Below are positions 2,338 through 63,372 of a DNA stretch of 64,000 bases, in pieces; the first letter of the stretch is position 1; every line of letters starts with the position of its first letter. Source of the stretch: Bacillota bacterium. GTDB taxonomy: Bacteria > Bacillota > Limnochordia > Darwinibacteriales > DTU012. Made by a program: the position numbers and the translations under genes. The stretch is from the NCBI GenBank assembly GCA_012840925.1, contig DUVS01000015.1, positions 119,142 to 183,141 of the forward strand, in the 5' to 3' direction. The notes beneath the pieces are model-generated. The model was not told the origin of the DNA and ran no database searches. It saw nothing but the letters and a program-made list of their open reading frames with translations.

Positions 2338-2402
2338 GGAACTGGGAGCTGTCCATCCGCGGGCAAGATTGTACCCGGGATGATCCCAGTTCCTGTTTTT
2401 TT
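2338..2402 (+). terminator. Rho-independent terminator after the HAD hydrolase gene
   Basis: GGAACTGGGA...TCCCAGTTCC long stem with an inner CCGCGGG/CCCGGG hairpin, followed by TGTTTTTTT. Confidence 0.7.
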
Positions 2403-2843
2403 GTGCTTGATGGTGAAGTGGGCATAAATTCCAGTGCTGGGAACAACTTCATAAAGAGGTTTAGCAGGACTTATGTTGAAGAAATAGAATATCTAAAGCG
2501 AAGTTGTAATGAACCAGACTTTGTTACAACTGAACTAACTTATGTTAGTTATGGTTGTCCTTCACAATATTCCTGTGGCAAGACAGGAAAGGAGGTGACA
2601 GTTCCCCCAAGGCAACAGCCAGGGAATATTGGAACGGTTGCAACCAGACATTCATGTCCAGTCATTGCAGTCGACGGAGTAACGGCAGCTGACGAAGGAA
2701 TACGGACAAATGAGGAAACATGGATACTCACTTGCAGTGATTCCTTCATCGCACCAGAGGATTGTTTAAGAACACTAGATCATCCAAGATCCGTAGTCTG
2801 AACAGAAGCATGAATTAAAGAGATTAAGGGGGATCATAACCGA
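2403..2843 (+). ncRNA. long, highly structured 5' leader / candidate ncRNA upstream of the porin-like gene
   Basis: About 440 nt with no credible RBS-preceded ORF. Contains multiple inverted repeats (GTTGTAA..TTACAAC; AACTAAC..GTTAGTT; TCCTGT..ACAGGA; GAAGGAAT..ATTCCTTC) and ends in a strong RBS (TTAAGGGGGATCATAACCGAATG). The 132-aa ORF predicted here has no RBS. Confidence 0.3.
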
Positions 2844-4205
2844 ATGAAGAAATCAATGATGGTTTTAACACTAGTGCTTGTATTTGCAGTTTCCGGTTCA
2901 GTTTTCGCAGCCGGAATCAAGTTTGACGGTTCTTTGAAATCAAATCTCGAGTGGTACAGAGATTTGGAAGGTGAAATTGAGACCCGGCCGTCTTCCGAAC
3001 TGAGTTTGAACTTTGGTTTGGATACAGCCAGTGAAAAGACTAGAGCTGTTGTGGAATTTGGCATTGGCCATAAAAACAGCCAAGGCCTGGATCTGGAATT
3101 GGATGCCAGCAACTTGGTCTTGAAGAAAGCTTATATTGAAACTGATGGCTCTTTCTGGCACGGCGGACCTGAAGCAACAACCCGCTTCGGCAGTCTCGAC
3201 ATTGATTACGGCCCATTCAGCGTAGTCAAGGACCAATATGGTATCAGTGTCAGTGACATGAATATTGGGCCGGTTGCAGTCAAGGGATTCTACGGTATCC
3301 CGAGCCAAGAGCAAAAATCAATTCAAGGCTTGAGAGCCGACATGCTCATGGATAATATCGCTGCCGGTGCAGCTGTAGTCCATGACTGGGATGCATTGCA
3401 CGTAGCAGTTGACGGTGCTATTCGTCCGATGCAGGATCTGATTCTCGGTGCATCAGTTGCTACTCAGTTCGACATGAGACAAGAAGCTGAAGGTGAAGAA
3501 GGCGAAGAAGGCGAAGCAGAAGAGAACGCACTAAGACACATGTTAGCAGTTGGAGCTCAATATCAGGTAATGGATAACTTGAGTGTCCGCGGCGGATACA
3601 AAGCCATTTCTGAAGACTGGCAGCCAGAGTACTTGGCAGACAAAGCCAAGAAAGCTGCTGACGATCGCGGCCAAAACTGGATCCACGAGAGCGAACGCAG
3701 AAACAGTGGTTTCTATGCTGGTATCTCCACCAACCAGTCTGGTATCCAACTAGCAGCTGACTACGATCAAATCTTTGACGAGGCAATTTTGACTGCTGCA
3801 ACCGATGTGGAAGGATACAATGTTAACGTTGAAACAGTACTGGCAGTTGGCGCTGAAGAAGGTATCAAAACTGAAAGCACAACTCTGGGAGTCGAAAAAG
3901 CATTTGCAGTAATGAACGGCTTGGATATCACAGCTAAATACAACGGCAAGTGGACACCAGCAACCGGATTGGTTCACACTGTTGGTGCCAATACCAAGTT
4001 GGGCTTAATCCCTGCAGTTGATGGTCTTGAGCTGAATAGTGAAGTAACAGTCTCCGATCTTGAAACTATTGGCTATCAAGTAGGAGCTAGCTTCGACGCA
4101 CCAAACGGTATTGGCCTGAGCATCAAGCACGTTGGCGGTAAATTCGCTGATGAATCAGTCAAAACTGGTACTACTGCCAAAGCAGGTATCGCAGTTAAAT
4201 TCTAG
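2844..4205 (+). CDS. secreted beta-barrel, porin-like outer-membrane-type protein (hypothetical)
   Basis: Signal peptide MKKSMMVLTLVLVFAVSGSVFA|AG. Alternating hydrophobic/polar beta-strand pattern with a C-terminal ...GIAVKF (terminal Phe typical of OMP beta-barrels). Internal acidic low-complexity EAEGEEGEEGEAEE. Strong RBS GGGGGAT. Confidence 0.5.
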   Translation: MKKSMMVLTLVLVFAVSGSVFAAGIKFDGSLKSNLEWYRDLEGEIETRPSSELSLNFGLDTASEKTRAVVEFGIGHKNSQGLDLELDASNLVLKKAYIETDGSFWHGGPEATTRFGSLDIDYGPFSVVKDQYGISVSDMNIGPVAVKGFYGIPSQEQKSIQGLRADMLMDNIAAGAAVVHDWDALHVAVDGAIRPMQDLILGASVATQFDMRQEAEGEEGEEGEAEENALRHMLAVGAQYQVMDNLSVRGGYKAISEDWQPEYLADKAKKAADDRGQNWIHESERRNSGFYAGISTNQSGIQLAADYDQIFDEAILTAATDVEGYNVNVETVLAVGAEEGIKTESTTLGVEKAFAVMNGLDITAKYNGKWTPATGLVHTVGANTKLGLIPAVDGLELNSEVTVSDLETIGYQVGASFDAPNGIGLSIKHVGGKFADESVKTGTTAKAGIAVKF

Positions 4206-4230
4206 TAATAACTCCAGCTATCTTGAAATA

Positions 4231-4260
4231 AAGCGGTCTGTAGCTTACAGACCGCTTTAT
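4231..4260 (+). terminator. terminator hairpin after the porin-like gene
   Basis: AAGCGGTCTGTA-gct-TACAGACCGCTT perfect 12-bp stem, flanked by an A-tract and a short T-run (bidirectional type). Confidence 0.6.
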
Positions 4261-4655
4261 GATTAGAGCAGGTCTGAAATATACGCATGCTAAGGCAGGA
4301 ATTCAGAGGATTGTGGTGAATATTAATTCTAAGTATGCCCGGCACTGCCTTGGGCTTTAAGAACTCTTTAAAAATATATTAATTAAAAGAAGGATATTTA
4401 TTTTGGTTGTGGAATAGTCAGATTAAGAGAGATACTTGCGTGTGGTGTTTCAGCATATAATGTCGGTTTTTTCAAGAAAACGATGTGGATTTTCAGTTGG
4501 CTTTGAGGCAGTTTTTTTTGTGATCTCTCTACTGACAATGGAAAAGTAAAATAGAATCGAATAGTTTCCGGGAGGTGTTCTGCAGATAATTTGACCAATC
4601 AAACAATTTGGACCCAATAAGCCAAGTGCTAAATTTATATAGAGGAGGGTAATTA

Positions 4656-5816
4656 ATGGCCAGGGTATTGCTAGACAGCGTTACCAAGCGTTTTGGTAAT
4701 GTTATAGCAGTAAATGATGTAGATTTGGAAGTTAAAGATAAAGAGTTTGTAGTATTGGTAGGCCCGTCCGGGTGTGGAAAAACAACTACACTGCGGATGA
4801 TTGCCGGACTGGAAGAGATTACTAAAGGAACCATCAGCATTGGAGATACTGTTGTTAACGACATTCCTCCAAAAGACAGAGACATTGCCATGGTGTTCCA
4901 AAACTATGCCTTGTATCCTCATATGGATGTTTATAATAACATGGCTTTTGGCTTGAAACTGCGCAAGTTTCCAAAGACTGAGATCGATCGCCGCGTAAAA
5001 GAAGCAGCGCGGATGTTAGGCATTGAAAATCTGCTTGACAGAAAACCAAAACAACTCTCTGGTGGTCAGCGCCAACGTGTTGCTGTAGGCCGGGCAGTTG
5101 TTCGGGAACCCAAAGTATTCCTGATGGACGAGCCGCTGTCCAACTTGGACGCTAAATTGCGGGTACAGATGAGAGCTGAATTGAGCAAACTGCATCAACG
5201 GCTGCAGGCTACCATCATCTATGTAACCCACGACCAGATTGAGGCTATGACCATGGGTGACCGGATTGTAGTCATGCGCGACGGCTTGATTCAACATGTA
5301 GCCAGCCCGCTGGTGATCTACAACCATCCTAACAATGCGTTTGTAGCCGGGTTTATTGGTAGCCCGCCCATGAACTTCATTAACATGATCTTGACTCGCG
5401 AAGATGATCGTTACTTCGTAGAGACCATCGAAGGCCGGGTCAAATTGGAAATTCCACGCGAACGTGTAGATTACTTCGAGAATATCGATGCTTATGTGGA
5501 AAAAGAAGTAATCTTCGGTATCCGTCCTGAGGACATTGAAGACTACAATGTATACAAAGCACAATATGGCGAAGTGGCAGAAGGTGTAATGAATTCCTTT
5601 ACCGCTATGGTGGACGTAATTGAACCGATGGGTGCTGAAACATATCTCTACCTGTCACTCGATGAAGAAATTCCACAATTGATTGCCCGTGTTGATGCCC
5701 AGACCACTGCCGTAGGCGGTGAGCAGCACAAAGTCGCAATCAATATGAACAAATGCCAACTGTTTGACAAGGAAACTGAGAAAACACTACGCAAAGAGAA
5801 TGTACGCCTAAGATAG
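4656..5816 (+). CDS. msmX: sugar-type ABC transporter ATP-binding protein (MsmX/MalK/UgpC family), with no adjacent permease genes
   Basis: Walker [11 protein letters not shown]-loop, signature [10 protein letters not shown], Walker [13 protein letters not shown], plus a C-terminal MalK-like regulatory domain. RBS AGAGGAGGG. Confidence 0.9.
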
Positions 5817-5905: not shown

Positions 5906-6607
5906 CTATCGGTGGACACTGTCCAGGATCTGTTGAAACGAGGCTCCATACTGAATTGATTGAATGAACATGGCCAGATAGGCGCTGCGCACAGGATCCA
6001 TTTCATATTTCAGCTCGTTGACCAGTTGTATTTCCAATTCCTGGATGTTGTCGATGGAATCCGCCAATTCCATTAACTCGTCCCGCGTGTTTGCATACGC
6101 TTCGTCATCATTCAGCTGTTCATAGATATAACAGAGCTGGTTTAGGAACAGCATTCGCCACAGCAAATCAAACAGTTTGAGCCCTTTTTTCAGGATTGCT
6201 TCAGCTTGTGGATATTTTTTCTTAAAAGTGAGTACCCTAGCAGTTAGGTAATAAAGTTCAGGATTTGGTGGCAATTGGAAGTCGAGGTCATTGTTAGTTA
6301 GCAGGGAATTTGTTAGGTGTTCGAGAAATATAGTAGTAGGTGTTTCCGGTAGCTGTGCCAAGTATTGTTTACAGATATCCGGATACAGAATCGTTGCCTT
6401 GGCTTTGGTCAGTGCTGTGTAATCACCGATCAATTCTGCAACGGTGGTATCAAGTTTGTTGGCAATCTTAGAGAGCGTCTCAATTGAAGGTTGAATGCGG
6501 CCCCGCTCTATCTGACTGACGTAGCTGCGGGTCCAATTGCCTTTAGCCAATGCTTCCTGGCTAAGCTTTAACTTTTTCCTACGCAATCGGATATTGTTGC
6601 CAATCAT
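5906..6607 (-). CDS. XRE-family HTH transcriptional regulator with a C-terminal TPR-like helical domain (RNPP/Rgg-like architecture)
   Basis: N-terminal IRLRRKKLKLSQEALAK...SYVSQIERGRIQPSIETLSKIANKLDTTVAEL is an HTH_XRE motif. The remainder is helical repeats. RBS AAGAAGGTG sits before the internal ATG at 6607; the ORF-track start at 6640 lacks an RBS. Confidence 0.7.
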   Translation of the reverse strand: MIGNNIRLRRKKLKLSQEALAKGNWTRSYVSQIERGRIQPSIETLSKIANKLDTTVAELIGDYTALTKAKATILYPDICKQYLAQLPETPTTIFLEHLTNSLLTNNDLDFQLPPNPELYYLTARVLTFKKKYPQAEAILKKGLKLFDLLWRMLFLNQLCYIYEQLNDDEAYANTRDELMELADSIDNIQELEIQLVNELKYEMDPVRSAYLAMFIQSIQYGASFQQILDSVHR

Positions 6608-6719
6608 TACTAAACACCTTCTTTTTATGAAAATTGTCATATCCCAAAAATATGGAAATATGAGATCCCGCTATTTATAGATTACCATATTTCATGGGCA
6701 AGTGCAATTTTTCCTGACA

Positions 6720-6807: not shown

Positions 6808-7077
6808 TTGGCTCAAAATAGGCGAATAGTGGTCTCTGTGCCCAACAAGCTGTTGAAGGAAGTGGATCAGGTCGTGCAGGAAGGAAACGGCAACCGGAGC
6901 CAGTTTATCCGGGAAGCGGTTCAGATGTATATCCTGCACCGGAAACGAGCCTCTTTGCGGGAACAACTGAAAAGTGGATATCAAACCATGGCAGCCATTA
7001 ACATGCTCTTAGCTGAAGAAGGAACCGATGAGCAATTGCTTGACCAGTATGAAAGACAGTTAGCGGAGGCGGAATAA
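6808..7077 (+). CDS. mazE: RHH/CopG-type antitoxin (MazE / EndoAI-like)
   Basis: TTG start 7 nt after [35 protein letters not shown] is a ribbon-helix-helix fold motif. Gene lies immediately upstream of, and is coupled to, the MazF-like toxin. Confidence 0.75.
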
Positions 7078-7078
7078 T

Positions 7079-7435
7079 GTGCAGCAAACGATAAGGCGTG
7101 GGGATATCTTCTATGCCAACCTCAATCCGGTTATTGGGTCGGAACAGGGTGGCGTACGGCCTGTCTTGATTCTACAGAACAATATTGGCAACAAGTACAG
7201 CCCAACCACGATTATTGCAGCGATAACGTCAAAAATCAAAAAGGCCAAGCTGCCGACTCATGTAGAATTATCAGCTGCTGAGTTTAACCTCGACAAAGAC
7301 TCGGTTATTCTGCTGGAGCAGCTGCGAACTATTGACAAAAGGCGTTTGAAGGAGAAGATCGCCCATTTGGATGAAGAGATTATGAGCGAAATCGATCGGG
7401 CCATCATGATCAGTCTGGGCTTGGTCGATCTGTAA
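7079..7435 (+). CDS. mazF: MazF/PemK-family endoribonuclease toxin (NdoA/EndoA-like)
   Basis: [74 protein letters not shown] is near-collinear with Bacillus EndoA/NdoA. GTG start lies 1 nt after the antitoxin stop, with RBS GGAGGCGG. Confidence 0.9.
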
Positions 7436-14152: not shown

Positions 14153-14236
14153 ATTATGGAGCCATTTAAAGGAAATCATCTTTAAGCAGCGAACTATAGT
14201 TAGTTATAAAAAGAAATGGAAATGGAGTGCTCGTGG

Positions 14237-33880: not shown

Positions 33881-34192
33881 ACTTTAAACATATTCAAAGG
33901 TATTCCGAGAAAAGCAATGACCGGGAGGAGTAGCTGAGTACCGCCTTGCAGAGAGGGAAACAACAGGTGCAAGTTTCCCAGGTATGGGCTGGCGAAGGTC
34001 GCCCGGGAGCTGTTGGGATGAAACGGGAGATGTTTCCATGAGTAGTTCCAGCCGTCTGGCGCGTTAAGCCAACTGAGGGCTCAACAGCATGCTGAGTTCT
34101 GGTTTTGTTTATGCTGTATGAGAACAAAGGTGGTACCGCGGAAGTCTTTTCGTCCTTTAGATGAAAAGACTTTATTTTTTTGGAGGAGTGAA
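33881..34192 (+). promoter_or_regulatory. T-box riboswitch leader (Val-specific) with intrinsic terminator
   Basis: Conserved T-box sequence AAAGGTGGTACCGCGG (34124-34142). It is immediately followed by terminator AGTCTTTTC...GAAAAGACT plus TTTATTTTTTT (34143-34181). GGTC (GUC Val codon) is a candidate specifier within GAAGGTCGCC. Located upstream of valS. Confidence 0.7.
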
Positions 34193-43814: not shown

Positions 43815-44645
43815 GTGGTTTTGTCCCGAAAAATCAGGCGCGTAAGAGTAATCGTGATCCTGATCATGATTGTAGCCATTGCCGGGAGTATCCACTTTAC
43901 CTCTCGCTCCCGTCCCCAGGTGACTGTCGGCGAGCAGGCAGTTCGTGATCTTCTGGCACCGATCCAAACACTGTTCATGCGCATCTCCCAAACAGTCCAT
44001 TCATTCTTTGCATCAGTGGGGCAAATTGGCAGCCTTAAGCAGGAAAATGCCCGGTTGAAGGCTGAATTACTAGAGCTTGAGCGTCAGTTGTACCAGATGG
44101 CAGAGTACAAAAGAGAAAATGAGTGGCTCCGGGAAGCGCTGGAGTTTAAGAAACAAGAATCCTATCAAATGTTGGTATGCGAAGTGGTTGGCAGGTCGCC
44201 GACCAATCTCTTCAATACTGTTACCATTAACCGCGGCAGTAATAACGGAGTAACCCAAGGCATGGCGGTCATGTCCGGCAACGGGGTTGTTGGCACTGTG
44301 CAAAGTGTTACAGCCACTACTGCCACGGTGATTCTGGCTACCGATGCCCGCAGTGCGATTGGGGGCATGGTTCAGCATTCCGGCGATCTGGTGCTGATTG
44401 AGGGTGATCCGGATTATTCTGGGATGCTGTTGGCCAAGCCTTTGTCCAAAGATGTACAATTACAGGTTGGTGATGTTCTTGTCACATCTGGACTGTCGCA
44501 ATATTTCCCCAAAGGACTACCCATAGGCAAAGTGGTGGAGATCGTCCCCAGCCGCTATCAGCTGTCTTTTACAGCATACATCCAGCCTTTTGTGGATTTC
44601 AGCAGACTGGAGTACGTTTTAATCTTGCTTGGTGATCCGAAGTAG
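43815..44645 (+). CDS. mreC: rod-shape-determining protein MreC
   Basis: N-terminal TM, coiled-coil ENARLKAELLELERQL, and C-terminal beta-domain. GTG start after GAGGAGGTGAA. Confidence 0.85.
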   Translation: MVLSRKIRRVRVIVILIMIVAIAGSIHFTSRSRPQVTVGEQAVRDLLAPIQTLFMRISQTVHSFFASVGQIGSLKQENARLKAELLELERQLYQMAEYKRENEWLREALEFKKQESYQMLVCEVVGRSPTNLFNTVTINRGSNNGVTQGMAVMSGNGVVGTVQSVTATTATVILATDARSAIGGMVQHSGDLVLIEGDPDYSGMLLAKPLSKDVQLQVGDVLVTSGLSQYFPKGLPIGKVVEIVPSRYQLSFTAYIQPFVDFSRLEYVLILLGDPK

Positions 44646-45168: not shown

Positions 45169-47005
45169 ACACAAAATCTTGGAAGATAAGACACTGGAAC
45201 AGCGTCTCCGGGTATTTTGGGTGCTGATCATCATTATCATCTTAATTATCTGCGGCAGGTTGTGGGAGCTTCAAATCCGCCGGGGAGGCCATTACGCAAA
45301 CTTGGCCGAGGGCAATCGCATGCGCCGGATTCGGGTAATGCCTACCAGAGGTGTCATCTACAGCCGTGATGGCAAAGAGTTGGTCCGCAGCCGTCCCGCT
45401 TTTACAGTGGCTTTGGTACCCGGCGGGATTCCCCAAAATGCTGAAGGTGTGCTGGAGTACTTAAGCGAGATTTTGTGCCTCACCAGCGAAGAACTGCAGG
45501 CGGCCATCAATAAAGGGCGCCAGAACTTGTATGAACCGGTTCGCATTGCCCGTGATGTTGATTTGAGTACAGTCGTGGCTATTGAGGAAAACCGGATGAA
45601 GCTGCCGGGAGTTTTTATAGAAGAAGAGTGGGTGCGGGATTACCTTTATCCCAGCTTTGCCAGTCATCTGATTGGTTATTTGGGTATTATCAGTGAGCAG
45701 GAGCTGCAGCAGCTCGGCTCGGGATATGCCAGTTCTGACTTAGTCGGCAAAACTGGATTGGAAGCAATCTATGAACAGGAACTGCGGGGAGTCCTGGGTT
45801 CGGTCATGGTGGAAGTGAATGCTTTGAGCCGGCCGGTACAAACGGTGAGCTATGTGGAGCCGATTCCAGGCTACAGTTTGATACTTACTCTTGATCGTGA
45901 GCTGCAGCAGGCAGCGCGGGAGGCATTTATTGCCCATACGGACACGCTGCGGGAGGAAGGTGCCCCGCCATTTAAGGGGATAGTGATTGCTTTAAACCCA
46001 AAGACCGGTGAGATTCTGGCGTTGGTCAGCATGCCCGACTATGATCCCGGAAGATTGCTGGATGCCAGGCAGCGGAACAGTTATTATAAAAGTTTGGTCA
46101 ATAACCCTGATTTGCCGTTATTCAACCGTGCAATTCAAGGACAGTACGGGCCCGGTTCAGCATTCAAGCCGTTCATTGCCGTGGCTATGCTGGAAGAAAA
46201 GGTGGTAACTCCGGACCAGGTGTTTAATGCCACCGGTACCAGCGAATACGGGATCCGGGACTGGGTGATAACCCAGGGCCTCGCGCCTTTCGGCCCGATC
46301 AAGCTTGTCGATGCTCTGGCAGTGTCCAGCAACCACTATTTTGCCGAGTTCGGCAAACAGGTGGGTATTGATCGGCTGTCAACCTGGCTGAGAAAATTTG
46401 GCTTCGGATCTCCCACTGAGATGATCGGGGTCACTCAGGAAGCATCAGGTTTAGTGCCGGACCGGGAGTGGAAGCGGCAGCGGTATGCCGGCTACCCCAC
46501 CTATGAGCAGGCTTGGTACCCTGTGGATACAGAACAGATCTCGATCGGGCAAGGTTTTGTCACTGTGACGCCTGTCCAGTTGGCAGCTGCGTACAGTGCC
46601 ATCGCTAATCGCGGGGTGATCTATCAGCCGACGGTGGTCAAACAGATCATTGATCCGGAAGGCGAAATTGTCTTTGAGCATACACCCACGGTAAAAACTA
46701 CTATGGATGTGGCTGAGAGCACGTGGAATGCGGTAATCCAAGGCATGGAGGCTGTAATTACCCATCCCAGGGGGACAGCCCGCCGGGCTTTTGAAGATTT
46801 CCCGATCCGGACGGCCGGCAAGACCGGTAGTTATGAAATACCAGGCCAAGAAGGGCACGGTCTTTTTGCTGCCTTTGCCCCAGTTGAGGATCCGGAATTG
46901 GTGGTGGTGGTGATTGTCGAGCACGGAACCGGGGGCGCATCTAGTGCAGCACCGATTGCACGCATGGTATTTGATGCCTATTTTGGGTTAAATAGGCAGG
47001 AATAA
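45143..47005 (+). CDS. mrdA: penicillin-binding protein 2 (peptidoglycan D,D-transpeptidase MrdA)
   Basis: N-terminal TM; dimerisation domain; transpeptidase motifs SAFKP (SxxK), SSN, KTGS. ATG at 45143 overlaps mreD by 26 nt. Alternative TTG start at 45179 lies 9 nt after GAGGTGAA. Confidence 0.85.
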   Translation: MRFSGDRGEHKILEDKTLEQRLRVFWVLIIIIILIICGRLWELQIRRGGHYANLAEGNRMRRIRVMPTRGVIYSRDGKELVRSRPAFTVALVPGGIPQNAEGVLEYLSEILCLTSEELQAAINKGRQNLYEPVRIARDVDLSTVVAIEENRMKLPGVFIEEEWVRDYLYPSFASHLIGYLGIISEQELQQLGSGYASSDLVGKTGLEAIYEQELRGVLGSVMVEVNALSRPVQTVSYVEPIPGYSLILTLDRELQQAAREAFIAHTDTLREEGAPPFKGIVIALNPKTGEILALVSMPDYDPGRLLDARQRNSYYKSLVNNPDLPLFNRAIQGQYGPGSAFKPFIAVAMLEEKVVTPDQVFNATGTSEYGIRDWVITQGLAPFGPIKLVDALAVSSNHYFAEFGKQVGIDRLSTWLRKFGFGSPTEMIGVTQEASGLVPDREWKRQRYAGYPTYEQAWYPVDTEQISIGQGFVTVTPVQLAAAYSAIANRGVIYQPTVVKQIIDPEGEIVFEHTPTVKTTMDVAESTWNAVIQGMEAVITHPRGTARRAFEDFPIRTAGKTGSYEIPGQEGHGLFAAFAPVEDPELVVVVIVEHGTGGASSAAPIARMVFDAYFGLNRQE

Positions 47006-47063
47006 AATTTGAGAAAGCGAAGTTGTAAAGGTAGGAATGAAAGCATTCGAGGAGAGACCCATA

Positions 47064-54045: not shown

Positions 54046-54148
54046 TATTGAAGCGGGTTTGGATGTGTTGTGAAACCGCATGGTACAGGCTTTTTAAAAC
54101 ACAGCATGTGTGCCTGGGACCAGCGAGTCTGAGCAAGGAGGTGGAGTA

Positions 54149-61808: not shown

Positions 61809-62061
61809 TGCTTAACACCCCTTTTTGAAAATGATTTGTTTTGTGCTTATATATTGCCCGCAAATCATACTTTATATCAATGATTGTATTGGCAAATCCG
61901 GTAATTTCTTGTATTGAACACGGGTAAATCTGATGCAGGAAAAGGAGTGTGTGTGTTGAACATAATAACCGACGTCTAATAAAGGGTTTTTCTGCTAAAA
62001 GGATTGTGAAAGGATTCTTAAGTACAACCAAATAAGCGAGTGTAAGAAAGGGTGTGTTGAG

Positions 62062-63372
62062 TTGTTGGTCAAGACATTTCCCCGCGGTGGAGGCCATATT
62101 CCGCATCGTAAAGATGCGACACAAAATAAACCGGTTATGGTAATGCCCGCCCCCAAGCAAGCCATCATCCCTTTGAGCCAGCATGCCGGGGCTCCCTGTC
62201 AACCAATCGTTAAAGTTGGGGATCAGGTCAAATTGGGGCAAAAGATCGGCGAAGCTGAGAAATATATCTCAGCACCTGTCCATGCCAGTGTGTCGGGCCA
62301 AGTCGTGGAGATCGGAGAAAGGACATTGCTGGATGGCACCAAAGCTATGTGTGTGATTATCGAGAATGACGGCCTTGATGAAGCTGAGGCAGCAGTTCAA
62401 CAGGATTATACACGCCTGTCGTCAAGCCAGATAGCTCAACTGATCAAAGAAGCGGGAATTGTCGGCTTAGGAGGGGCAGGGTTTCCCACCCATGTCAAGG
62501 TTGAACCGCCGAAGCCCATTGACACAGTATTAATCAATGGAGCTGAGTGTGAACCGTATTTGACCTGTGACCACCGTTTGATGATCGAACAACCGCACAA
62601 ATTGATTGAGGGCTTGAAGATCTTGATGCAGGCTGTCGGTGCAAGTCAGGGTATCATTGGTGTAGAAGTCAATAAACCTGATGCCATTCGGGTATTGGAG
62701 CAGGCTTGTGCCGAACAGTCTTATATTCGGGTTGTAGGTTTGAAAGTCAAGTATCCGCAGGGCGCAGAAAAGCAGCTGATCAAGGCGGCTCTTGGCCGGG
62801 AAGTGCCTTCAGGGGGCCTGCCGGCAGAAGTAGGATGTATTGTCCAGAATGTCCAGACTGCCATAGCGGTTGCAGATGCAGTTGTTCGGGGCATTGGGCT
62901 TTATCAGAGAGTGATTACTGTGGCGGGAGCGGCAGTATACGATCCCCGTAATGTACTGGTAAGGATTGGCACGCCGATTCAAGAAGTGATTGATTTCTGC
63001 GGCGGAATGGGCAATCCGGCGGCGATCGTGGCCGGTGGGCCGATGACCGGGAAACTTGTTCAAGACTTGACAGCACCGGTAACTAAGCCGCTGTCCGGAA
63101 TCTTAGTGCTGGCCAAAGATGAGATCAGCTATGAGTTGAATCATCCATGCATCCGCTGCGCCCGTTGTATTGATCACTGCCCAATGGGTTTACAGCCGAA
63201 TTACCTGGCGGATTGGAGTAATAAAGGATTATATGATCAGGCCCAGCGTAATTACATCATGGATTGCATCGAATGCGGCCTGTGCTCATTCGTATGCCCG
63301 GCACAACGAGGTTTGTGCAGGTCGATTCAAGCAGGTAAACAAGCAGTAAGAGCTGGAAAAACAGCAATCTAG
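62062..63372 (+). CDS. rnfC: Rnf electron-transport complex subunit C
   Basis: GAGFPTHVK (NADH/FMN-binding), NGAECEPYLTCD, and two ferredoxin CxxCxxCxxxCP motifs (CIRCARCIDHCP, CIECGLCSFVCP). Confidence 0.9.
   Translation: MLVKTFPRGGGHIPHRKDATQNKPVMVMPAPKQAIIPLSQHAGAPCQPIVKVGDQVKLGQKIGEAEKYISAPVHASVSGQVVEIGERTLLDGTKAMCVIIENDGLDEAEAAVQQDYTRLSSSQIAQLIKEAGIVGLGGAGFPTHVKVEPPKPIDTVLINGAECEPYLTCDHRLMIEQPHKLIEGLKILMQAVGASQGIIGVEVNKPDAIRVLEQACAEQSYIRVVGLKVKYPQGAEKQLIKAALGREVPSGGLPAEVGCIVQNVQTAIAVADAVVRGIGLYQRVITVAGAAVYDPRNVLVRIGTPIQEVIDFCGGMGNPAAIVAGGPMTGKLVQDLTAPVTKPLSGILVLAKDEISYELNHPCIRCARCIDHCPMGLQPNYLADWSNKGLYDQAQRNYIMDCIECGLCSFVCPAQRGLCRSIQAGKQAVRAGKTAI

Follow-up and report, generated by a model that had tools for sequence, protein, structure and literature searches.

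The porin locus and its control region

We analysed a 64-kb window of DNA (64,000 nucleotides; contig DUVS01000015.1, positions 119,142 to 183,141) from a Bacillota bacterium of the Limnochordia, and all coordinates below are positions in this window. On the + strand it carries a porin-like gene (2844..4205) whose control region (2403-2843) consists of about 95 bp of promoter DNA followed by a 5′ untranslated region (5′ UTR) of about 345 nt. The best reading of our comparisons with orthologous loci is that this leader belongs to a previously undescribed family that precedes two paralogous porin genes in Limnochordia-like diderm Bacillota. A leader family with this distinctive trio, namely a decoy Shine-Dalgarno (SD) sequence, a candidate anti-SD and a hairpin loop with an invariant GGA, appears to be new.

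The regulated gene encodes a 453-aa secreted β-barrel outer-membrane protein with a signal peptide and a C-terminal Phe residue. Homologues were found in Bacillota, 'Firmicutes' and Limnochordia metagenome-assembled genomes, some of them with the Pfam domains Porin_4 or OMP_b-brl, and one source names them 'opacity protein-like surface antigen'. The 453-aa protein itself had no Pfam match and no match among PDB sequences, and an AlphaFold 2 model was all-beta with >20 strands at low confidence (pLDDT 55). On these grounds we accept the product as a porin-like outer-membrane protein.

Upstream lies a gene for a HAD hydrolase (1520-2320; Pfam Hydrolase_3 on the open reading frame, ORF), and its intrinsic terminator (2338..2402, + strand) sets the 5′ limit of the porin transcription unit. 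The terminator has perfect 10-bp arms, GGAACTGGGA at 2338-2347 and TCCCAGTTCC at 2384-2393, with an inner hairpin between them and a run of seven T residues after them, and it folded with a minimum free energy (MFE) of -30.2 kcal/mol (z = -3.19). An earlier annotation of this DNA, made from its letters without database searches (hereafter the sequence-only reading), had placed a strong terminator at 2338-2402, and the arms, the T-run and the z-score confirmed it.

A conserved, structured and non-coding leader

For comparison, 38 loci were fetched (L001-L038), and after removal of exact duplicates and error-prone copies about 32 non-redundant leaders remained. They were divided into group A (the clade of the window), group B (distant porin-1 leaders) and group C (porin-2 leaders). 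Every porin orthologue was preceded by a recognisable leader, including those with as little as 37-42% protein identity, and each of the two porin paralogues had its own 390-435-nt upstream gap carrying the same core elements.

When folded, region 2403-2843 gave an MFE of -124.9 kcal/mol (z = -2.65), and none of 100 shuffled sequences was equally stable. The sequence-only reading had described the region as dense with hairpins, and all four of the inverted repeats that it listed were located: GTTGTAA/TTACAAC (2502-2531), AACTAAC/GTTAGTT (2533-2550), TTCCTGT/ACAGGAA (2570-2589) and GAAGGAAT/ATTCCTTC (2694-2747). It had also recognised no known riboswitch class, in agreement with an Rfam 15 scan that found no match at the gathering score in 2250-2950 or in six orthologous loci; the best permissive match in 2250-2950 reached 18.7 bits against a gathering score of 91 and was sub-threshold noise. 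Elsewhere in the window, Rfam matched a T-box (33908-34160, + strand, 112.7 bits) and a ribosomal protein L21 leader (54064-54140, + strand, 36.6 bits), the latter barely over threshold. A literature search found nothing on the porin leader.

An ORF of 132 aa occupies 2403-2801. Its mismatches to the orthologues showed no preference for any codon position (26/35/23 and 23/23/27 being two examples), the frame was broken by 5-8 non-triplet indels in each orthologue, no Pfam match was obtained, and the longest stop-free stretches in other leaders were 31-111 codons. We regard the ORF as spurious and region 2403-2843 as non-coding. The proposal of a structured non-coding leader had been tied in advance to two tests, protein-level conservation of this ORF and covariation of the stems, and both favoured the RNA reading: the ORF was unconserved at the protein level and the stems covaried, as described below. 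A structured cis-acting leader is well supported by these comparisons. No terminator-like site was found on the + strand between 2403 and 2843, and since no terminator precedes the porin ATG, an independent small RNA, which the sequence-only reading had offered as an option, gained no support and is unlikely.

A sigma-H-like promoter

In the first part of the control region we identified a sigma-H-type promoter (2464..2492, + strand) with the -35 element GCAGGACTT at 2464-2472, an 11-nt spacer and the -10 element ATAGAATAT at 2484-2492. The transcript start was predicted near 2497-2500, about 5-8 nt past the -10 element; an RCG is conserved there, and in all groups a 5′ helix follows within about 5 nt. 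The predicted 5′ UTR of the porin mRNA spans 2497..2843. Of the ~440 nt that the sequence-only reading had taken as leader, the part from about 2497 onwards stands as such, and the first ~95 nt (2403 to about 2496) appear to be promoter DNA and not leader RNA.

In Bacillus the sigma-H consensus is RNAGGAWWW for the -35 element and RNNGAATWW for the -10 element (PMC8510167). The porin promoter differs from RNAGGAWWW-N11-RNNGAATWW by one mismatch, with the proviso that the consensus is that of Bacillus and the host's sigma factor may differ. The bases AGCAGGA (-35) and GAATAT (-10) were invariant or near-invariant among the orthologues (alignment A2). With an 11-nt spacer and at most one mismatch, the pattern occurred at six sites in the window compared to 0.59 expected from shuffles, an enrichment of about ten-fold, and all six were on the + strand just 5′ of + strand ORFs. 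With a 12-nt spacer it had no site in the window. The other sites precede an ATP-binding cassette (ABC) ATPase gene (two sites), a phosphoribosyltransferase gene (14168-14196; gene at 14216), minC (46996-47024; gene at 47037) and an RnfC-like gene (61935-61963; gene at 62062). In B. subtilis, minCD is sigma-H-dependent. The enrichment suggests a real alternative-sigma regulon in this organism.

A sigma-A promoter was also considered. The best candidate, TTAGCA-18-TAGAAT at 2461-2490, matched 9/12 positions, and in the orthologues its hexamers dropped to 3/6 and 4/6. We consider it the less likely reading: its hexamers are weak and conservation falls on other bases, whereas two sigma-A controls in the same window, TTGACA-17-TAAAAT at the L21 leader and TTGACA-17-TATCAT at the T-box, are canonical or nearly so. 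Because AGCAGGA and GAATAT are conserved while the sigma-A promoters of the window are canonical, the porin promoter appears to belong to a different, sigma-H-like class. It resembles Bacillus sigma-H (Spo0H) promoters in both boxes, with one mismatch, and in its 11-nt spacer, and the same motif stands before minC here. Unlike them, it serves a major porin, which is no known sigma-H target, and has an extra conserved upstream box.

This box, CTGGGAACAACTTCATA (2435..2451, + strand; consensus CTGGnAAnAAnTnCAT), is centred about 56 bp upstream of the predicted start and is a candidate activator or UP-type site. Groups A and B share it, as do some group-C leaders, with unconserved DNA on either side, and it lay about 12-15 bp 5′ of the -35 element in porin-1 genes across groups and in some porin-2 genes. 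A sigma-54 reading of its TGG...CAT was rejected, as its GG and GC stand 2 nt too close together and the GC varies among the leaders.

Helices in the 5′ half of the leader

The predicted transcript begins with P1, a 5′-terminal hairpin (2502..2531) with a 12-bp stem and a 6-nt loop that starts about 5 nt from the predicted 5′ end, followed by P2, the hairpin AACUAAC-UUAU-GUUAGUU (2533..2550). Together they folded at -17.1 kcal/mol (z = -5.35). In P1, eight pairs were scored, five of them had changed on both sides, and 95.7% of cells were paired. Group B has, in place of P1, a long covarying 5′ helix (ACCACCACC/GGUGGUGGU, ACGAUCACG/CGUGAUCG and ACCAUCAC/GUGAUGG) that encloses P2.

The stem of P2, CUAAC/GUUAG, is conserved in sequence, and its motif CTAACTTATGTTAG was near-invariant in porin-1 leaders and occurred once in the window. 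In L003 (CUAACUU-AUAU-AAGUUAG) and L036 (GCUAACU-AACGUC-AGUUAGC) the loop and spacing are altered and the hairpin is kept. Because these two leaders change the spacing yet keep the hairpin, P2 is better explained as an RNA hairpin than as a spaced DNA operator. It is degenerate in L024 and missing from porin-2 (group C) leaders, and is thus an accessory element. In L026, L032 and L005 the spacer between the SD sequence and the AUG holds (G/A)CUAAC, the same as the 5′ arm of P2, so that the 3′ arm of P2 could pair beside the start codon; the match is 5-6 nt long and possibly a coincidence.

The P3 domain (2553..2645) displays the decoy SD sequence and the C-run described below. Its outer helix pairs GGUUGU (2553-2558) with GCAACC (2640-2645), its inner helix pairs CAAUAUUCC (2565-2573) with GGAAUAUUG (2623-2631), and it includes the hairpin UUCCUGU/ACAGGAA (2570-2589). 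The domain folded at -32.6 kcal/mol (z = -2.69), and helices 3-5 showed compensatory changes (alignment A5). For the 5′ half of the leader as a whole, 92.4% of cells were paired compared to 33-55% with slid partners, and 12 pairs had changed on both sides compared to 7.2 +/- 1.6 in shuffles (0/500), the helices tested for compensatory change having come from the same alignments. A long-range helix ATTCATG/CATGAAT (2650-2656 / 2809-2815) was discarded because only L007 and L012, the closest relatives, retain it.

A decoy Shine-Dalgarno sequence

Within P3 lies GAAAGGAGGUG (2587..2597), an 11-nt decoy SD sequence that no start codon follows. Position by position, it was conserved in 27-32 of the 32 leaders. 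It exactly complements the canonical 3′ tail of Firmicute 16S rRNA, CACCUCCUUUC, which was used here, the host's own 16S gene not being in the window. Its 10-mer AAAGGAGGTG occurred once in the 64-kb window, and 29 of its 30 occurrences in 219 kb of non-redundant loci were in porin leaders. Because all 11 bases are conserved and not just GG.GG, which exceeds what pairing with the C-run would need, the 16S tail is the likely partner of the decoy.

No start codon (ATG, GTG or TTG) was found 2-12 nt past the decoy in the window or in 22/29 leaders. The sequence-only reading had seen no ORF preceded by a ribosome-binding site in this region; a very strong SD sequence, AAAGGAGGTG at 2588-2597, is nevertheless present, and it has no start codon behind it. 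In L003, L036 and L006 an AUG does follow at 5-7 nt and opens upstream ORFs (uORFs) of 11-12 codons (L003, L036) and 18 codons (L006), which argues that the decoy site is competent for initiation. These uORFs lie at 3789-3840 (L003), about 1210-1260 (L036) and about 3897-3960 (L006) of their loci, and two of them start with Met-Pro-Pro (AUGCCCCC...). The porin-1 leader of L006 lacks both the C-run and P5, which it has lost entirely, and carries the 18-codon uORF in their place.

A sequence of this kind has a precedent in the cry3A mRNA, where a stabilising SD sequence (STAB-SD) lets the 30S subunit block 5′-to-3′ decay by RNase J1 (PMC4113751). Two attributes of a STAB-SD were found here, a 16S-complementary SD-like sequence in the 5′ UTR and the lack of an initiation codon after it, with L003, L036 and L006 excepted. 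Together with the 5′-terminal hairpin, this gives specific support to a stabilising 5′ UTR, which had been one of the earlier suggestions for the region.

A C-run complementary to the porin ribosome site

Just past the decoy lies a C-run, UCCCCC (2603..2608), which occupies the start-codon position relative to the decoy SD sequence and is a candidate anti-SD; among the leaders it was placed 2-8 nt past the decoy. The real translation initiation region (2820..2846) consists of a conserved GAGATTAAGGGGGAT with a G-run at 2828-2832, an 11-nt spacer and the ATG at 2844-2846, and AAGGGGGAT was invariant in this region in group A. The sequence-only reading had called the porin ribosome site strong. 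This did not hold: the site, AAGGGGGAU, is a GGGGG 11 nt from the ATG and atypical for the genome, where the genes of the window usually have GGAGG at a modal spacing of 7 nt.

The C-run is complementary to 2828-2833, with a duplex energy of -13.7 kcal/mol. Complementarity between C-run and G-run was present in every leader examined, group A having 5-7 contiguous pairs, group B 4-7 and group C 8/9 pairs. These pairs were taken from a manually anchored pair table; a concatenated MAFFT alignment shifted group B by one column and was unusable. In most leaders the C-run segment was the best or near-best partner of the ribosome site, and its flanks followed the real site and not the invariant decoy, with four-G sites accompanied by CCCCUU and five-G sites by UCCCCC. 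Between the group-C C-run, CCCGCUCAG, and the ribosome site of that group, CUGAGGGGG, 8/9 pairs form with an energy of about -15 kcal/mol, compared to -6 to -8 kcal/mol for this C-run with the sites of groups A and B. An alternative is that the C-run pairs locally with the decoy. In group C the gap is only 2 nt and a local decoy hairpin is thus unable to form, and in the window the local hairpin (-4.1 kcal/mol, z = +0.96) was no better than random. RNAalifold on group A predicted the CCCCC:GGGGG helix. The sequence-only reading was correct in seeing a leader and overlooked its promoter part, the decoy SD sequence and the complementarity of C-run and ribosome site.

The P5 hairpin and its invariant loop

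Downstream of P3, the long hairpin P5 (2691..2750) carries a 12-nt loop, GAAACAUGGAUA (2715-2726). Its outer stem pairs GAAGGAAU (2694-2701) with AUUCCUUC (2740-2747), and its apical stem pairs UGAG (2711-2714) with CUCA (2727-2730). The hairpin folded with z = -3.87, and all leaders gave a long hairpin with a 12-nt loop. The loop consensus is AACA-N-GGA-N-AC, in which ACA (2718-2720) and GGA (2722-2724) are invariant. The closing pair was GC in 20 leaders and AU in 7, and it was never unpaired. The outer arms have wholly divergent sequences, and cognate arms paired at -12.2 kcal/mol compared to -7.7 kcal/mol for non-cognate arms; these energies were used instead of a pair count on the ungapped or model-fitted alignment, where 54% of cells were paired and stem registers differ. 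A covariance model of P5 (R1) matched only porin leaders in 210 kb, including three porin-2 leaders outside the seed, plus weak, chance-like matches. One of these, at 43864-43923 (loop 43886-43903, - strand) with GAGGTAAAGTGGATACTC in the loop position, scored 19.9 bits (E about 0.002) and runs antisense to a membrane-protein ORF of the + strand, at its 5′ end; it is probably due to chance.

Two functions of the loop were rejected. Its AUG cannot serve generally as a start codon, being AAG, AGG or GUG in several leaders. Kissing of the loop with P2 (AACAU/AUGUU), with the spacer of the ribosome site or with the sequence after the C-run was discarded as well, since variants were uncompensated and P2 is absent from porin-2 leaders. 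P5 is probably a factor-binding site.

Other features of the neighbourhood

The order of SHOCT, HAD, MalK-type ABC ATPase, porin 1, porin 2 and XRE regulator genes is common to distant genomes. In the window, a second long intergenic region (4206-4655, 450 nt) separates the porin gene from the gene for the MalK-type ABC ATPase (4656-5816). A hairpin resembling a terminator lies there (about 4233-4260), followed by two sigma-H-type matches, one perfect (4295-4323) and one with a single mismatch (4389-4417), and these matches imply another long leader, which would be about 240-330 nt. A P5-like hairpin was absent from this intergenic region. On the - strand, at 5906-6640, lies a gene for an XRE-family HTH_3 regulator with a long C-terminal extension; such a gene adjoins the porin cluster in nearly all loci (L024-L035 syntenic), and the protein is a candidate transcriptional regulator of the porins. 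Beyond it, a type II toxin-antitoxin pair on the + strand (6808-7435) consists of a ribbon-helix-helix antitoxin (6808-7077) and a PemK/MazF toxin (7079-7435, Pfam E = 1e-37).

Proposed mechanism and alternative explanations

We propose that the porin leader both stabilises its message, through a 5′ hairpin and STAB-SD-like docking of 30S subunits, and gates its translation through a masked ribosome site, and we consider the chances of this being right to be about even. The 5′-terminal hairpin and a 30S subunit on the decoy SD sequence would shield the mRNA from 5′-end-dependent decay by RNase J. The real ribosome site, about 225 nt downstream of the C-run, would be masked by pairing with it. 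Since the C-run occupies the start-codon position, a 30S subunit docked on the decoy would cover it and free the real site, and porin translation would therefore depend on docking at the decoy. The P5 loop would dock a trans-acting factor that tunes porin translation. Taken as a whole, this mechanism, which we infer from sequence comparisons and folding, is moderately likely. A stricter form, in which the leader is a ribosome-sensing switch whose anti-SD is covered by free 30S subunits on the decoy, releasing the porin site and protecting the message from RNase J, is doubtful.

Several observations weigh against this proposal. The long-range helix carried next to no weight in structural ensembles, where the C-run of groups A and B paired locally with the decoy instead (fraction 0.1-0.97); RNAalifold on 12-13 sequences likewise chose the local hairpin of C-run and decoy. 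The opening energy of the porin ribosome site, 7.2 kcal/mol, fell between the quartiles for 38 other genes, whose median was 5.75. The cores of the C-run and G-run are invariant, so the helix is supported by changes in the flanks, which correspond to one or two evolutionary events. The ribosome site or the start region could instead pair with the pyrimidine-rich 3′ arm of P5: in the window, CAGTGATTCCTTCAT (2735-2749) is complementary at 13/15 positions to the porin start codon and first four codons, ATGAAGAAATCAATG (2844-2858); among close relatives, a change of codon 2 from AAG to AAA accompanies a C-to-U change in the P5 arm (L002); and in porin-2 leaders (group C) the P5 arm UUUUUCCCC and the site GGGGGAAAAA are complementary. 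This arm may serve as a second masking element. Moreover, the decoy lies ~90 nt from the predicted 5′ end, whereas the STAB-SD of cry3A is beside the mature 5′ end, a position reached when the 5′ end is processed from -558 to -129 (PMC4113751), and processing must be assumed for the porin message. The transcript start, its processing and its stability are predictions, and the 16S tail used was the canonical Firmicute one and not the organism's own. Partition-function folding and opening energies provided no thermodynamic support for masking of the ribosome site. Masking by the C-run is plausible but unproven.

The conserved loop could alternatively mark a CsrA-type translational operator, in which a GGA-binding global regulator binds the P5 loop with high affinity, as well as the GGA-containing ribosome site and/or the decoy, represses or activates translation, and leaves the decoy and C-run as accessories. 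In the CsrA consensus obtained by in vitro ligand selection (SELEX), RUACARGGAUGU, ACA and GGA are 100% conserved and one base apart with GGA in a hairpin loop, and the ligands favour 6-nt loops and <=4 base pairs (PMC7652899). The ACA-N-GGA of the P5 loop has this one-base spacing within a hairpin loop, its N is A or G in several leaders and matches the consensus, and GGA is also present in the decoy AAGGAGG and, as weak evidence, at the real ribosome site, where an A is kept behind the G-run (GGGGGAU / GGGGGAA). P5 departs from the short stem, hexaloop and downstream GU of the SELEX ligands in having a long stable stem of >15 bp, a 12-nt loop and AC in place of GU. In addition, the distance from the P5 loop to the SD sequence, about 65-110 nt, is longer than a CsrA dimer is known to bridge, and a CsrA operator leaves the conservation of a full 11-nt complement of 16S rRNA unexplained. 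CsrA is possibly the factor that binds P5, and a CsrA-type operator as the explanation of the leader is conceivable, though unlikely.

The leader could also be a pure stabiliser or expression enhancer without a switch, with 5′ hairpins and a parked ribosome, in which case the complementarity of C-run and G-run would be incidental or reflect local folding. Porins are typically very abundant proteins, a STAB-SD precedent exists, 5′-terminal helices were found in all groups, the ensembles did not predict the long-range helix, and the accessibility of the ribosome site was ordinary. Against this, the invariant P5 loop, the conserved C-run and the compensatory extension CUCAG/CUGAG in group C are left unexplained, and a conserved leader of 250-350 nt exceeds what the stabilisers of ompA, aprE and cry3A need. 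We consider stabilisation alone quite unlikely.

Control at the DNA level is improbable. The palindrome CTAAC-N4-GTTAG (2535-2548) could be an operator for the XRE-family helix-turn-helix regulator, with the hairpins incidental, and it is indeed conserved in sequence without covarying and accompanied by a syntenic HTH_3 gene in nearly all loci. The half-site spacing, however, shifts from 4 to 8 bp in L003 and L036 while the RNA hairpin is kept, neither the porin-2 leaders nor L024 have the palindrome, and it covers 14 of about 345 nt and leaves the covariation of P1, P3 and P5 unaccounted for.

A metabolite or ion riboswitch, with a ligand bound by the P3 junction or by P5 and control exerted on the ribosome site, is very improbable. 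A long conserved leader with several helices and a possible SD-masking platform would suit it, and the MalK-type ATPase gene nearby hints at a connection with sugar uptake. No Rfam family matched, however, and no terminator-like site was found on the + strand of the leader (2403-2843); the invariant bases (SD-like sequence, C-run, GGA loop) are of the type expected for ribosome or protein sites and not for a ligand pocket, and the architecture of P3 differs between porin-1 and porin-2 leaders, which keep only the linear motifs. That the 132-aa ORF or a small leader peptide is the functional product is hardly credible, the uninterrupted frame of 132 codons in the window and the short uORFs in three leaders being outweighed by the even codon-position mismatches, the non-triplet indels, the lack of a Pfam match and the lack of a start codon past the decoy in the window and most leaders.

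Relation to known systems and significance

The leader most resembles a STAB-SD or 5′ stabiliser combined with an SD-masking leader, and it lies outside all curated RNA families. The cry3A STAB-SD of Bacillus thuringiensis was reportedly described by Agaisse and Lereclus in 1996 and by Mathy and co-workers in 2007. With that system the porin leader shares a non-initiating, perfect SD-like complement of 16S rRNA in the long 5′ UTR of a highly expressed Firmicute gene, and the same proposed effect of 30S subunits blocking 5′-to-3′ decay by RNase J1 (PMC4113751). In contrast to cry3A, the decoy is not at the predicted 5′ end, sits inside a closed domain of a larger conserved leader and is followed by a C-run complementary to the real site. 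The leaders of E. coli ompA and B. subtilis aprE, are also long, precede a major envelope or secreted gene and have a hairpin that starts a few nucleotides from the 5′ end; they show no homology in sequence or structure to the porin leader, which is 2-3 times longer, has a decoy SD sequence and an invariant GGA loop, and would act against RNase J/Y rather than RNase E. The CsrA/RsmA leaders of B. subtilis hag and E. coli glgC have an ACA-N-GGA hairpin loop 5′ of a GGA-containing ribosome site, as here, but the porin leader differs in its 12-nt loop, long stable stem and distant sites, and its decoy and C-run have no counterpart in them. As in SD-sequestering leaders such as translational riboswitches and RNA thermometers, an upstream pyrimidine run is complementary to the SD sequence and adjoins an alternative partner, here the decoy GGAGG. 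In those leaders the effector is a ligand or temperature, whereas here the competitor is a full 16S complement, the ribosome itself could be the effector and the masking span would be about 225 nt. Ribosome standby sites and split ribosome sites, such as that of phage T4 gene 38, similarly have an exposed loading site beside a maskable start region.

To our knowledge, almost nothing is known about the regulation of envelope genes in the Limnochordia. The class is one of three diderm Firmicute lineages (PMC10628300), and the leader would be a new RNA family, one that Rfam lacks, and the first conserved element for control of porins after transcription in diderm Firmicutes. The STAB-SD principle, until now seen in a few Bacillus cases, would also gain a deeply conserved example that is embedded in a structure. 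The set of decoy SD, anti-SD and real SD sequences offers a clean, mutable model for ribosome docking as a regulatory signal, and the 11-nt decoy with its scaffold could serve as an expression or stability module in Firmicute hosts. If the ribosome-sensing switch were true, it would couple porin synthesis to the pool of free ribosomes without a protein or metabolite effector, and would represent a cis-regulatory logic that is so far undescribed, class-wide and duplicated on two paralogous porin genes.

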